From a virus (lineage: Duplodnaviria; Heunggongvirae; Uroviricota; Caudoviricetes), in IMG/VR virus record IMGVR_UViG_2706794677_000007: DNA of 4,427 nt; one strand, written 5' to 3'. Shown piece by piece: positions 1-4,427 of this stretch. Position numbers and translations under genes: made by a program. The stretch's first letter is position 1; every line of letters begins with the position of its first letter. Under the pieces are notes generated by a model. That model made no database searches and was not told the origin of the DNA. It saw only the letters and a list, made by a program, of their open reading frames with translations.

Positions 1-1
1 G

Positions 2-76
2 CTGTCGTTCTCAAAATCGGTGGAGCTGCATGACAAAGTCATCGGGCATTATCTGAACATAAAACACTATCAATAA
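2..76 (+). CDS. insB: IS1 transposase InsB, C-terminal fragment (5' end outside window); translates ...[24 protein letters not shown], stop TAA at 74-76
   Basis: Hand translation of frame 2 gives the characteristic InsB C-terminus and stops 15 bp before the IS1 terminus. Confidence 0.8.
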   Translation: MSFSKSVELHDKVIGHYLNIKHYQ

Positions 77-685
77 GTTGGAGTCATTACCTGCGCCCCC
101 CTGTGGAATGTAGTAATAACGTTCCATAACGCGGGCACGCCATATTTCCAGATTTTCAATATCTTCACCGTCTGTAATGGTGTCAGCGTACCCTGTGGAC
201 GGCAGACCACTGACGGGTGTTCCCAGTTGCATGGCAATACCATCATCCGTATTCCCCGCCGATCCCGGTTCGTCTGCCACAACAGGCACCCGGAGAAGAC
301 CATCGGCTGCGGTCACCGTCGCCGTCGTGGTAAAGGTCACCTGATTATCACGCTGGATCTGCGTTCCCGCTGGCAATACCGGCGTCCCCTCTACGCCATC
401 CCAGCGCACAAATCCCCGGGCTGCCACCGCTTCTTTTCGCGGGCAGCGTTTGATTCTGGCGTGCCGGTACAGCCAGTCTTCATCACACACGTCCGGTAAC
501 AGATTTCTGGCAAGATAATCGATATACCCGTACAACGTGTGTACGGCTGCAGCCTGTACACGGGCATACACTTCCGCATCCATACGACGAAGCAGCGTAT
601 CCTGCTCAAAGCGGGTTAATAAATCGCTCCGGATCATAGAAATAAGTTGCGGGAGGCCGGGGCGATAAAACTGACTGTCAGCCAT
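11..685 (-). pseudogene. Baseplate J-like protein (Mu gp47 family) interrupted by IS1. Native coding sequence is 92-685 (about 198 codons); the last about 26 codons (11-91) are read from the IS1 end and are not native.
   Basis: ORF-track protein begins MADSQFYRPGLPQLISMIRSDLL...YARVQAAAVHTLYGYIDYLARNLL, typical of baseplate J-like proteins. The ORF runs into IS1 at 91 and stops at 11-13 inside it. 224 aa is much shorter than typical baseplate J proteins (about 350 aa, from memory). SD-like GGAG sits 9 nt upstream of the ATG (685), and the start overlaps the gp46 stop (ATGGCTGA). Confidence 0.7.
69..91. repeat. IS1 terminal inverted repeat (IRR, about 23 bp) of the left copy
   Basis: Terminal sequence ...ATCAATAAGTTGGAGTCATTACC equals the IS1 right-end repeat; the extent of about 23 bp is from knowledge of IS1. 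Confidence 0.75.
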
Positions 686-1088
686 TCAGTTCACTCCAGA
701 TATCATCAAAAATAATGTTGTGAATATTGCCGTCACGCTGGTAAATGGTAATGGCAAGTGCCAGCGAGTCTGTCCCGGTCCGGACAGCGTTAATATCAAG
801 ACGGGAAGCAACACCATCCTCCACCATCCACGCCAGCGCCTCACGGACATAATCTCTGGCAAGCTGCGGGGTTTTATTTGTCAGCTTGCTGCGTCGCAAC
901 AGATACAAACGCGACCCCGTGCGATCATTCTGAACCGCAGGCCAGGTATCCCCCCACCATCCAAATATCCGTGGTGCATCATCACGCCCGGCACGCCGCC
1001 ATGTAAAAAGCGAAATAATCACAGCACGCGTCAGAAGGTCGATCGAAGCCCCGGTCGACACGGGTCGCCCGTTAACATTAATCATCAT
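678..1088 (-). CDS. Phage Mu gp46-family baseplate protein
   Basis: 136-aa protein with a GWWGD motif and overall resemblance to the phage GP46 family; sits between gp45 and gp47 homologs as in Mu. Start is 5 nt after the gp45 stop. Confidence 0.75.
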   Translation of the reverse strand: MMINVNGRPVSTGASIDLLTRAVIISLFTWRRAGRDDAPRIFGWWGDTWPAVQNDRTGSRLYLLRRSKLTNKTPQLARDYVREALAWMVEDGVASRLDINAVRTGTDSLALAITIYQRDGNIHNIIFDDIWSELNG

Positions 1089-1093
1089 GATTT

Positions 1094-1441
1094 TCAGCCC
1101 ATCGGTTGATCCGNNNNNNNNNNNNNNNNNNNNNNNNNNNNNNNNNNNNNNNNNNNNNNNNNNNNNNNNNNNNNTTCCCCACGTTTCAGTCCTTTCAGCC
1201 GGTAACGTCTGTCAGCCACGACCACAACCACACCATGAGAACGATCGCCCGCCGGAAATAAAGCAACGCCCTCAGCACCGTTCTGTGCGGCAGATGTAAA
1301 ACCATAAGGTTCAAGGTGCTCAACGTGTTGTTTCTGATCTCCGGCTATCATTTTCAACCCTACAGACTGACACTTTCTGGCGGAATCCACCGCCGTGATG
1401 ACAGCCCGGGAAATCAGATTACGAAGAGAAAACCCGTTCAT
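1094..1441 (-). CDS. Phage Mu gp45-like baseplate assembly protein V (spike), containing a 61-nt unresolved N block (1114-1174) that stays in frame
   Basis: Protein MNGFSLRNLISRAVITAVD...EHLEPYGFTSAAQNGAEGVALFPAGDRSHGVVVVVADRRYR resembles the gpV/gp45 family. Strong SD (GAGGAGGA) upstream of the ATG at 1441; start overlaps the P stop by 23 nt. Confidence 0.7.
   Translation of the reverse strand: MNGFSLRNLISRAVITAVDSARKCQSVGLKMIAGDQKQHVEHLEPYGFTSAAQNGAEGVALFPAGDRSHGVVVVVADRRYRLKGLKRGEXXXXXXXXXXXXXXXXXXXXXDQPMG
1114..1174. other. Run of 61 N (unresolved or masked bases) inside the gp45-like gene
   Basis: Literal n characters in the sequence. The flanking coding sequence is in the same frame on both sides, so the run appears to preserve true length. 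Confidence 0.95.
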
Positions 1442-2501
1442 CAGAAATCCTCCTCAACATTTTTTTCTTCCTGGCGGTAACAGGCTCGGGGAGATAAGCA
1501 TCTGCCGGGCCAACCCGTAATTCAGTCGTCGTGCCCCGGTCGTCCTGGTTATAGGTAACTTCTGCGATCACCAGTTCATCATTATCAAAATTATTCAGCG
1601 GGTCGAAAACGATGACAGATAACCCCGGACGCCATAACGCGCCACTGCCCTGCCGCCAGCCCTGAACCGTATATGTTGTCTCACGGGTAAGCGCAGCCCG
1701 TTGGCGCGCTTCAAATTCACAACGGGCCTTACAGGTTGCTGTCGTTGCTGTGCCTGACTGCTGAATCAACAAAGGGCGATAACGGGTCACGCCACTGTCC
1801 TGAATGGTCTGACGTATTGCGGCAATGGTGGCCTCACCAAAATCATCGTCGTTGCCCGGGCGCTGCCCACTGACCTGATATTCAGAAAACCGCTCTCTGA
1901 TGCTTCTTTCCGTGTCACAGGAAAGAATATTCTCTCCCAGCACCAGCACCAGCGCCGTCGCCGCTTTACCTGTTCCGGGTTTTCCCAGAACCAGTCGCCC
2001 GCATTCATCGTCATAAGCCAGCGTCTGAACCTGCCCCAGTAACCGGTTAAGACAATCGGCAACGGTTTCGCCGTGTTCCGGCTGGGCATCAATCACCGCT
2101 GTCTGCGGCACGCCAGCATCAACAACGGTGATGCCAAATGGCGCAGCCAGTTCACTGACTATTCTGAGCAGGTTTTTTCCGCTCTGCTGGAGTGGCAAAG
2201 CAGAGCAGTCAACCAGATCGGCTGTTTTGCTTCGCCCGACAATTCCCATGCTGACGCTGCTGGCGTCATAACGAAGCGGTAGTGCCTCCACATATCCGGT
2301 GAGCACAGGCTCATCCCCGATAAGCACTTCAACCAGCTCACCATTTTTTATCCGGGGTTGATAATCCCGGCTTCCGGGCCAGCGGGTGGTAATGGCAACA
2401 TTAAAATCCCGGGCAATACGGTTAATGCCCGCACTGATACGGACGGATGTCCAGCCGCCCCATTCGCGACCGGAAACCCGAAGTAAAACGGTATCATTCA
2501 T
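1419..2501 (-). CDS. P: Phage Mu P (gp44)-like baseplate hub / tail protein (P2 gpD family)
   Basis: 360-aa protein MNDTVLLRVSGREWGGWTSVRISAGINRIARDF... resembles Mu P / phage late control D family; lies immediately downstream of the N homolog with ATGA start/stop overlap at 2498-2501. Confidence 0.8.
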   Translation of the reverse strand: MNDTVLLRVSGREWGGWTSVRISAGINRIARDFNVAITTRWPGSRDYQPRIKNGELVEVLIGDEPVLTGYVEALPLRYDASSVSMGIVGRSKTADLVDCSALPLQQSGKNLLRIVSELAAPFGITVVDAGVPQTAVIDAQPEHGETVADCLNRLLGQVQTLAYDDECGRLVLGKPGTGKAATALVLVLGENILSCDTERSIRERFSEYQVSGQRPGNDDDFGEATIAAIRQTIQDSGVTRYRPLLIQQSGTATTATCKARCEFEARQRAALTRETTYTVQGWRQGSGALWRPGLSVIVFDPLNNFDNDELVIAEVTYNQDDRGTTTELRVGPADAYLPEPVTARKKKMLRRISDERVFSS

Positions 2502-3889
2502 CTGACGGGTACCCTTAATGCCCTGACCGGAACAAAGCCCGGATGAGAGATGGCATTTCGATCCAGGATATCAGTTTCACGGGACGCATCGTCGTACCAT
2601 GACGCAGCCAGAACAAGCGCAGGCAGAACTTCCGCTGGCGTTCGCTCTGCGGTTTCCTCCGTCTGAACCAGACGCGCCTGAATATCCCGGTTCAGTTCTG
2701 TACGTAATGACGTCAGCTGAAAAAACAGCCTGTCATCCGCCGTACGCCTGAGCTCCTGTTCAATCGCCGCGTTCAGCGATTTGCGTATGATGGTGAGATT
2801 TTCCCGCGTGGGTGGTTGCGCTCTCTCATCCTGTCCTGTGCTGGCTGCCACGCTGTCAAGTGCCGGATGAGAAACGTGAATAATATCGGACTGACGTTCA
2901 GTGGAACCACCAACAGCCACAACCGCCTGCTGATTTTTCACCAGGCTTCCGGGTTGTGGCAGTGAAGTGACCGCCCTTGTGGCTTCGCTGATTGCCGTCG
3001 TCCGGATGACAGCAGCCACAAGGTTTGTCTGCTGTTTTTGCCTGATAACCGATGCGGAATCTGTGGGCCACACCGCACGCGGTGCCAGTCCTGGGTCCAG
3101 CGTAATGCCGGACATTGTCGTTATGGACTGCACCAGATCCTGTGTGTTATCCACCAGCCGGGTTCCGGCCCGCCAGGTATCCTGCAACGTATGCACAAAA
3201 TCACTGGCAACCGACGGCGGCATCAGAATGACGGATAAATCGCCCTGCAGTAGTCTCGCTCCGGCAGAAACAGCCGAATTAACCATTTTGAAAGCTGTCT
3301 GAACGGTTCCCAGCATATCGGTCGTCCGGGCAATAACATCGTTCTGAATAAAGTCCGGTATTCCCGCGAGATCAAAATCGCCGAACATGTCTTCAATCAA
3401 CTCATCCAGGAATACGGACGACTCCTCCAGTTTTCTGGCGGTTGCAGCTCCGGCGACCGGAAATGACAGTTCCCCGCTCTCAACAAACTGAAATGAAACC
3501 CGGCACATACGGCCTTCAGTGCCGGAGTGAGAAACGGTCACCTGCCCGTCAATACAGCCCTGCATTTCACCGAACTGCGGATGGATCAGCGTCCCCGGCC
3601 CGGCGGTTTCAATCGCTGTAATCAGCCTGTCGCGCTGCTCTGCGTAATCATCACCAACGAGATACGCATTAATCGTCAGCCGTCGCGTGGCACGCCCGAG
3701 ATCTTCCGTGTACGGTTTGTCACGGTTTGGGTATTCATGGACCTGAACGCGGCGTCCGAACGAACCCTCGTCGCTCTCCACCGAAAACGGAACGCCACGA
3801 AATGAAGCGTCGTAAAGATTATCGCGCCAATTGATACCTGAAGATGCAGAAAAGAGTGAAGAAAGAGAAGGTAAAGAAGGTAAGTCCAT
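2498..3889 (-). CDS. N: Phage Mu N (gp43)-like DNA circulation protein
   Basis: 463-aa protein MDLPSLPSLSSLFSASSGINWRDNLYDASFRGVPFSVESDEGSFGRRVQVHEYPNRDKPYTEDLGRA... resembles the Mu DNA circulation protein family. SD GGAG (3895-3898, minus strand) 5 nt upstream of the ATG; N-P-gp45-gp46-gp47 order matches Mu. Confidence 0.8.
   Translation of the reverse strand: MDLPSLPSLSSLFSASSGINWRDNLYDASFRGVPFSVESDEGSFGRRVQVHEYPNRDKPYTEDLGRATRRLTINAYLVGDDYAEQRDRLITAIETAGPGTLIHPQFGEMQGCIDGQVTVSHSGTEGRMCRVSFQFVESGELSFPVAGAATARKLEESSVFLDELIEDMFGDFDLAGIPDFIQNDVIARTTDMLGTVQTAFKMVNSAVSAGARLLQGDLSVILMPPSVASDFVHTLQDTWRAGTRLVDNTQDLVQSITTMSGITLDPGLAPRAVWPTDSASVIRQKQQTNLVAAVIRTTAISEATRAVTSLPQPGSLVKNQQAVVAVGGSTERQSDIIHVSHPALDSVAASTGQDERAQPPTRENLTIIRKSLNAAIEQELRRTADDRLFFQLTSLRTELNRDIQARLVQTEETAERTPAEVLPALVLAASWYDDASRETDILDRNAISHPGFVPVRALRVPVR
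3866..3883. repeat. Perfect 9-bp tandem duplication (AGAAGGTAA x2 on plus strand; TTACCTTCT x2 on coding strand) encoding LPS-LPS at the N-terminus of the N homolog
   Basis: Read directly from 3866-3874 and 3875-3883. Confidence 0.8.
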
Positions 3890-3894
3890 ACTGT

Positions 3895-3898
3895 CTCC
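3895..3898 (-). promoter_or_regulatory. Shine-Dalgarno sequence (GGAG) for the N homolog
   Basis: Minus strand reads ...TTTTTTTATAGTGGAGACAGTATG. Confidence 0.6.
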
Positions 3899-3903
3899 AC
3901 TAT

Positions 3904-3927
3904 AAAAAAACCGCCAATTTCTGGCGG
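3904..3927 (-). terminator. Rho-independent terminator downstream of the AT-rich ORF and immediately upstream of N
   Basis: Stem 3911-3916 (CCGCCA) pairs with 3922-3927 (TGGCGG), 5-nt loop; on the minus strand the hairpin is followed by T7 (plus-strand A-run 3904-3910). Confidence 0.7.
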
Positions 3928-3935
3928 CTTATATA

Positions 3936-4331
3936 TTAATCATCATTAATATCTTTCATATTCAATTTGCAATTTTCGTAGGTCACTCCCGACTCGCCAT
4001 TAACATTAACTCCAGCTCTGATATTCCCGTTTTCTTTTACATCTACAAAAAACTGGCCTCTTGGCATCTTGAACGCAAATGTAAAACCAACAGTATCTGA
4101 ATCAAAATCATCATCTTTATATATTGGGATCAAAAATGTCATCGTCGCTGGTGATGCATTGTTTGCAAAATCAAATACACCTATACTTTTGCCGAATTCA
4201 TAAGAAGCTTTTCTCAATATAATCGCACCGCTGGCAGAAGGGGATGGGCACGATATCCTCAGTTGTCTGAATCCATCTGTATCCAAGTCAACGTCATTAT
4301 CTGCAGATGTTTTAACGGGTAATGACTCCAA
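3936..4331 (-). CDS. AT-rich ORF of unknown function (131 codons as drawn). Probably the 3' part of a gene whose 5' end was removed by IS1: the TTG start and first 4 codons lie inside the IS1 end, and the non-IS1 reading frame begins at 4317.
   Basis: Long open frame in a region of about one-third GC (hand counts 22/60 and 17/60 on sampled lines, versus about 31/60 in the one tail-gene line counted). Ends at TAA 3936-3938 just before the terminator. No convincing SD before TTG 4329-4331 or the internal ATG. No recognisable family from the protein sequence. Confidence 0.4.
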   Translation of the reverse strand: MESLPVKTSADNDVDLDTDGFRQLRISCPSPSASGAIILRKASYEFGKSIGVFDFANNASPATMTFLIPIYKDDDFDSDTVGFTFAFKMPRGQFFVDVKENGNIRAGVNVNGESGVTYENCKLNMKDINDD

Positions 4332-4340
4332 CTTATTGAT
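4318..4340. repeat. IS1 terminal inverted repeat (IRR, about 23 bp) of the right, inverted copy
   Basis: Reverse complement of 69-91. Confidence 0.75.
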
Positions 4341-4427
4341 AGTGTTTTATGTTCAGATAATGCCCGATGACTTTGTCATGCAGCTCCACCGATTTTGAGA
4401 ACGACAGCGACTTCCGTCCCAGCCGTG
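4333..4427 (-). CDS. insB: IS1 transposase InsB, C-terminal fragment of the right (inverted) copy; 5' end outside window; stop TAA at 4333-4335
   Basis: Minus strand translates ...[30 protein letters not shown]. Positions 4409-4427 continue the IS1 sequence (CACGGCTGGGACGGAAGTC on the minus strand). Confidence 0.8.

Follow-up and report, generated by a model that had tools for sequence, protein, structure and literature searches.

IS1 insertion in a Mu gp47-like baseplate gene of a decayed phiP27-like prophage in Shigella sonnei

The DNA considered here (the window: 4,427 nucleotides of IMG/VR virus record IMGVR_UViG_2706794677_000007) is almost certainly a piece of the Shigella sonnei chromosome lying between two inverted copies of IS1, one of which, by a simple insertion, splits the baseplate gene gp47 of a dead phiP27-like prophage. 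In the mechanism proposed, IS1 would have transposed into codon 198/199 of a 360-aa gp47, making its usual 9-bp duplication, and translation from the native gp47 start would run 26 codons into the IS1 end and stop there, giving a product of 224 aa. The 162 remaining gp47 codons, gp48 and the tail-fibre genes are still found directly behind the IS1, and the prophage is non-viable, before or besides this insertion, by loss of its head and early regions. An earlier note, made from the sequence alone, had read the locus as a gp47 homolog interrupted by IS1 in a decaying prophage, and this part of its interpretation stands, whereas the loss that it also proposed of the gp47 C-terminal part, gp48 and the fibre genes does not.

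The long ORFs of the window, all of them minus-strand, make up a Mu-type baseplate block, the last member of which is the gp47::IS1 fusion ORF (11-685, minus strand; 224 aa, ATG start), as delimited by Pfam and by alignment to an intact ortholog. Its ATG (685-683) overlaps the stop codon of the gp46-like gene (680-678) in the motif ATGGCTGA, with GGAG 8 nt upstream; the start coupled to gp46, the normal ribosome-binding site and the C-terminal tail described earlier were all recovered. Codons 1-198 (685-92) are native Baseplate_J/gp47 sequence, and codons 199-224 (91-14) with the stop (13-11) are derived from IS1; the boundary at nt 91/92 coincides with a codon boundary, codon 198 ending at nt 92 and IS1 beginning at nt 91. 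The entry into IS1 at this position and the stop 26 codons later were thus correctly placed in the note. Against the uninterrupted 360-aa ortholog of Escherichia coli FDAARGOS_944 (locus L001, taken from the ecoli_genomes collection), residues 1-198 are identical and similarity ends exactly there, as had been anticipated, although the portion of gp47 that the ORF lacks amounts to 162 of the 360 residues (45%) and not to a C-terminal third.

The assignment of the gene to the Baseplate J-like family, with Mu gp47 as its homolog, was borne out by a Pfam Baseplate_J match (PF04865) at residues 69-201 of the fusion ORF (E=1.2e-24; 87.5 bits against a gathering cut-off of 21.1). This match covers positions 2-137 of the 255-position profile only, so that the ORF ends mid-domain, whereas the 360-aa full-length ortholog matches the whole profile (2-255 of 255; 185.3 bits). 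The genes for gp44, gp45 and gp46 upstream and gp48 downstream provide the Mu-type synteny expected of gp47. A complete domain and collinear full-length similarity were found for the restored or intact 360-aa gene but not for the fusion ORF, and therefore the locus is a disrupted member of the Baseplate_J family, a pseudogene. With the cut passing through the Baseplate_J domain, the 224-aa product is predicted to be incapable of building a baseplate wedge. Residues 197-224 of the fusion also match phrog_27209 (83 aa, function unknown; E=1.6e-16), which suggests that this family includes spurious ORFs read from IS1 ends in phage and prophage records.

A naturally short or split Baseplate_J protein was considered, given that PHROGs holds both an N-half (phrog_2103) and a C-half (phrog_1608) family, and was rejected because 187 of 217 phage records contain one continuous match to at least 80% of the 360 aa (tblastn). 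Versions of the protein of ~200-221 aa do exist in databases, where they are labelled 'partial', and those of 212-221 aa are on contigs of ~4.5 kb; they are consistent with ORFs cut by contig ends. Natural homologs ending near residue 224, which the note had named as evidence that would overturn its reading, were thus not encountered.

The left end of the window (1-91, plus strand) consists of the 91 IRR-proximal bases of the gp47 copy of IS1, 100% identical to positions 10595-10685 of locus L002, which comes from a complete genome carrying the exact 224-aa protein, and the body of the element lies beyond this end. One copy of its 9-bp target-site duplication, GGGGGCGCA on the gene strand, follows at 92-100 (minus strand; established from the L002 flanks), and the second copy, beyond the IS1, falls outside the window. 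In L002, the element has 768 bp, ends in GGTGATGCTGCC...GGAGTCATTACC and carries the InsA/InsB Pfam domains; its flanks read ...CACAGGGGGGCGCA/GGTAATGAC... and ...GCATCACC/GGGGGCGCAGACCCTGAT..., and comparison of both with the intact reference gave a 10-base overlap composed of the 9-base duplication and one chance match. The features of the IS1 family are all present: a length of ~768 bp with imperfect terminal inverted repeats of ~23 bp (here 768 bp, with ends GGTGATGCTGCCAACTTACTGAT and GGTAATGACTCCAACTTATTGAT), genes for InsA and InsB (DDE_Tnp_IS1) with matches to PF03811, PF12759 and PF03400 in both copies, and a target duplication of 9 bp (occasionally 8 bp in the family), which is GGGGGCGCA at the gp47 copy and CGTTAAAAC at the second copy. 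The gp47 copy is transcribed antisense to gp47 in all ten of the long-contig loci listed. Removal in silico of the IS1 and one copy of the duplication yielded an intact gp47 ORF of 360 aa, for which H238R is the sole difference from the intact E. coli copy; with phiP27 L52 it shares 351 of 360 residues. On this sequence evidence, the event was a plain transposition without deletion at the junction, and it is read as apparently recent because the restored ORF departs from the E. coli copy by a single residue only.

Adjacent deletions are a known effect of IS1, and nothing of the phage is present beyond the IS1 end in the window, both ends of which are IS1. An insertion accompanied by IS1-mediated deletion of gp48, the fibre genes and the 3' end of gp47, with possible transfer of these to a site beside another IS1, would account for such an arrangement, and the note had regarded the 3' part as missing from the locus, presumably together with the other genes, and recommended that the 3' part be sought elsewhere, for example next to another IS1 copy. 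This was examined in ten long-contig loci among those carrying the exact 224-aa protein, which were found by exact-protein look-up. In all ten of the loci listed, a Baseplate_J C-terminal ORF, Phage_Mu_Gp48 (PF10076), a 346-aa fibre gene and genes with Caudo_TAP, phage_tail_N and DUF4376 domains are directly behind the 768-bp IS1. Along this flank, the sequence is collinear with, and 98.4% identical to, that of the intact E. coli prophage, and the 3' part of gp47 adjoins the very same IS1, with the perfect duplication GGGGGCGCA around the element and an open gp47 frame upon its excision in silico. The deletion reading is therefore already refuted for the genomes examined and could apply only to an individual strain; as an account of the window it is exceedingly unlikely. 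The genes appear lost because the window, in the manner of short-read contigs, stops inside the IS1 repeat. They may nevertheless be affected by it: polarity is a classical effect of IS1 insertions, and with this copy antisense to gp47, transcription initiated at the phage late promoter probably fails to reach gp48 and the fibre genes.

The second IS1 occupies the opposite end of the window, where its 110 IRR-proximal bases (4318-4427, minus strand) are 100% identical to L002 6073-6182. Its 9-bp target duplication, CGTTAAAAC on the gene strand, is represented by one copy at 4309-4317 (minus strand), and the L002 flanks of the element read ...AACGTTAAAAC/GGTGATGCTG... and ...GTCATTACC/CGTTAAAACATC... 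The two 768-bp copies have no mismatches, are inverted relative to each other and face inward with their IRR ends at the ends of the window. This arrangement led to consideration of an IS1-mediated deletion, an inversion or a composite transposon, each of which was discarded: both copies have their own perfect 9-bp duplication, and in each of the closed genomes inspected the segment between them is collinear with phiP27. Homologous recombination between the two inverted copies could flip the 4.2-kb baseplate segment; its orientation is that of phiP27 in all chromosome-scale assemblies examined, and short-read assemblies cannot distinguish the two orientations.

The target of the second IS1 is a 160-aa, low-GC, lipoprotein-like gene of phrog_5586 (function unknown), the 3' part of which (approximately codons 35-160) is at 3936-4317 on the minus strand. 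The element splits this gene after codon 34, with the target CGTTAAAAC at gene nt 101; a full-length copy is present at L001 13030-13512. The gene is located between those for the tape-measure and DNA-circularisation proteins, is also present in related E. coli prophages, and has a GC content of 37% compared to 54% in the phage genes. A Pfam search with the 160-aa gene gave no match. Its N-terminus, VIKPFLMTVAILTSC, resembles a lipoprotein signal with a lipobox, and the gene may be a moron of the superinfection-exclusion type. Just after it, an intrinsic terminator hairpin (GCCGCCA..TGGCGGT followed by T7) is predicted at 3896-3931 on the minus strand (RNA fold, -14.0 kcal/mol).

Between the low-GC gene and gp47, the remaining genes of the window, all on the minus strand, encode a DNA circularisation protein (Mu gp43/N-like; 2498-3889, 463 aa; Pfam DNA_circ_N PF07157, E=3e-36), a Mu gp44/GpP-like baseplate hub protein (1419-2501, 360 aa here; Pfam GpP-like_1st, Gp44-like_2nd, NMB1110_3rd and GpP_4th), a Mu gp45-like baseplate assembly protein (1094-1441, true length 177 aa; Pfam Phage_Mu_Gp45, E=1.1e-26) and a Mu gp46-like baseplate protein (678-1088, 136 aa; Pfam GP46 PF07409, E=4.5e-33), the stop of the last overlapping the gp47 start. 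The middle and C-terminal part of the gp45-like gene is hidden by a run of N at 1114-1174. These 61 N replace 247 bp of the otherwise identical L002 (9326-9572), corresponding to residues 90-172, so that the real locus exceeds the window by 186 bp; the 115-aa ORF listed at this gene is an artefact of the mask, and the sequence beneath it is of ordinary composition (GC 54%). Near the 3' end of the gp44-like gene (1455-1470, minus strand), the window has an A7 homopolymer, compared with A8 in both E. coli L001 and phiP27. Owing to the resulting frameshift, the protein ends in 13 different residues instead of its final 6 (NVEEDF), and the gene overlaps the gp45 start by 23 nt. The lengths called for gp44 vary among S. 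sonnei assemblies (350, 358, 360 and 362 aa), and the A7/A8 difference may be real variation or a long-read homopolymer error.

The host element is a phiP27-like prophage remnant beside smpB, with a Mu-type contractile tail, that is decayed and non-viable. Its nucleotide identity to phiP27 is 96.7% over 88% of the phage part of the window (92-4317), and it shares the gene order L44-L57. In its upstream part, the order is rluD-bamD-IS4-120-aa prohead-protease fragment-IS3-family element-sheath-tube-assembly protein-tape measure, and beyond the second IS1 of the window it continues downstream as DNA circularisation-gp44-gp45-gp46-gp47'-[IS1]-'gp47-gp48-fibres-smpB. Upstream of the sheath gene, only the 120-aa Peptidase_S78 fragment was found, between the IS4 and the IS3-family element. 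No capsid, portal, terminase, lysis, early or regulator genes were present in the 21 kb examined, and thus the complete head, packaging, lysis and early set of an inducible prophage is lacking. With the head and early genes gone and the second IS1 at the other end of the window, the decay suspected in the note is upheld.

The flanks of the remnant differ by strain. In L005 (HE616528.1), the order is ratB-IS4-bamE-recN, and in most other strains (L005 being compared with L002 and L014) it is ratB-IS4-raiA-pheL-pheA, with bamD-IS4 on the opposite side of the remnant; this is a pattern that an inversion between copies of IS4 would fit. Downstream of the remnant in L007, the arrangement is different again, with an integrase and other phage genes. 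The prophage of L001 (NZ_CP065613.1, 621407-643817) is nearly identical to the remnant, at ~99% over the window segment, and has an intact gp47. It is situated between zinT and head genes, beside an ipaHe effector gene with a frameshift, and ISEc60 interrupts the sheath gene of this prophage. Presence of the ipaH gene suggests that L001, although catalogued as E. coli, is an EIEC- or Shigella-like strain.

All other tail genes of the remnant, from sheath to fibres, still have open reading frames, and the head genes are absent as they are from tailocins. These features, together with an insertion that appears widespread in S. sonnei, would be compatible with the notion that the head-less tail module, or the gp47-IS1 fusion itself, has been domesticated and retains a function, for example as a tailocin-like particle or as an exapted piece of baseplate; this is considered very unlikely. 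The fusion stops at position 137 of the 255 in the Baseplate_J profile, while phages generally carry the full-length continuous protein (the 187 records noted above), and a polar effect of the antisense IS1 on gp48 and the fibre genes would be expected. An R-type tailocin has an intact baseplate and tail set without a head, along with lysis and regulatory genes of its own, but here gp47 is split by IS1 and lysis and regulator genes are absent from the 21 kb examined. The head region was lost via an IS-bounded deletion that left the protease fragment, which resembles decay rather than design. As for the open frames, they can be read as retention but are equally expected for a young clone; they do not testify to selection, since even the severed 3' fragment of gp47 has remained almost identical to intact copies, as a recent event would leave it. 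Very little probability is likewise given to the tail cluster being kept as a tailocin-like or exapted module in which the gp47 IS1 serves as a reversible switch, a role conceivable in that the 360-aa gene would be perfectly reconstituted if IS1 were excised precisely at the 9-bp duplication, or to the 224-aa fusion having a function of its own.

The window is 100% identical to L002 over both of its non-masked blocks, and an exact-sequence look-up located the 224-aa protein on chromosome-scale contigs. The same protein is deposited as UniProt Q3YYR0 (Q3YYR0_SHISS) of S. sonnei Ss046, and it bears the names 'head assembly protein [Shigella sonnei]' and 'putative head assembly protein [Shigella sonnei Ss046]'. 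This name is a misannotation; what is deposited is an N-terminal piece of a baseplate wedge protein, extended by IS1-derived codons. The neighbouring DNA-circularisation protein is represented by 3271 blocks in the collections, and in 3132 of the 3271 the longest carrying contig measures 2-5 kb. Taken with the ~4.5-kb contigs of the 'partial' proteins, this identifies the window as the usual IS1-bounded fragment from short-read S. sonnei assemblies. Its resemblance to a short-read contig ending in repeats, and its run of N, might also raise the suspicion of a misassembly at the junction, in which phage DNA and an IS1 end were fused into a chimeric contig; with the same junctions and target duplications recurring in several independent chromosome-scale assemblies of 4.8-5.0 Mb, the chance of this is close to negligible. 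An exact scan for the 39-nt IS1/gp47 junction in genome_contigs, which holds one genome per GTDB species, found none, probably because Shigella is there folded into the E. coli species representative. In the ecoli_genomes collection, the phage segment was found in 48 genomes (at least 80% coverage) and the IS1 junctions in no record.

Insertions of this kind are abundant in the genus. Shigella reference chromosomes contain 229-348 IS copies, mostly IS1 (Hawkey et al., 2020; PMC7373316), and for S. sonnei ~380-440 IS copies per chromosome and ~660-710 pseudogenes per genome have been reported, with an IS-split gene often counted by PGAP as two pseudogenes (PMC12795559). A literature search on the S. 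sonnei P27 prophage with IS1 found nothing. The gp47::IS1 gene is an already known, routine IS1 pseudogene, its protein having been public since the Ss046 genome. S. sonnei has several hundred IS insertions like it, by which genes are disrupted and short-read assemblies broken, and it is of little importance beyond correct annotation. The lesson to be drawn is that a gene running into an IS end at the edge of a contig or window should not be taken to signify deletion of the downstream sequence.

Among known systems, the gene is most directly compared with Mu gp47. Residues 37-351 of the intact 360-aa ortholog align with the solved 360-aa 'Baseplate protein gp47' 9ki1_H (E=4e-36), and this nearly end-to-end alignment justifies the designation Mu gp47 homolog. 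The order gp43-44-45-46-47-48 is common to Mu and this locus; unlike Mu gp47, the ORF of the window consists of residues 1-198 and 26 unrelated IS1-derived residues. The closest phage is the Stx2e phage phiP27 (NC_003356), where the corresponding genes are in the order L48-L52. phiP27 is a complete phage of 42.6 kb without IS1, whereas S. sonnei has only a remnant devoid of the head, into which IS1, IS4 and an IS3-family element have inserted; phiP27 also lacks the low-GC 160-aa gene, its tape-measure gene abutting the DNA-circularisation gene. The IS1 pseudogenes of Shigella, as annotated in Ss046 and 53G, feature a canonical 768-bp IS1, a 9-bp duplication and a genome with hundreds of IS, and the same is found here. 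From these other pseudogenes, gp47::IS1 shows no difference of substance, its sole oddity being the old name 'head assembly protein'.
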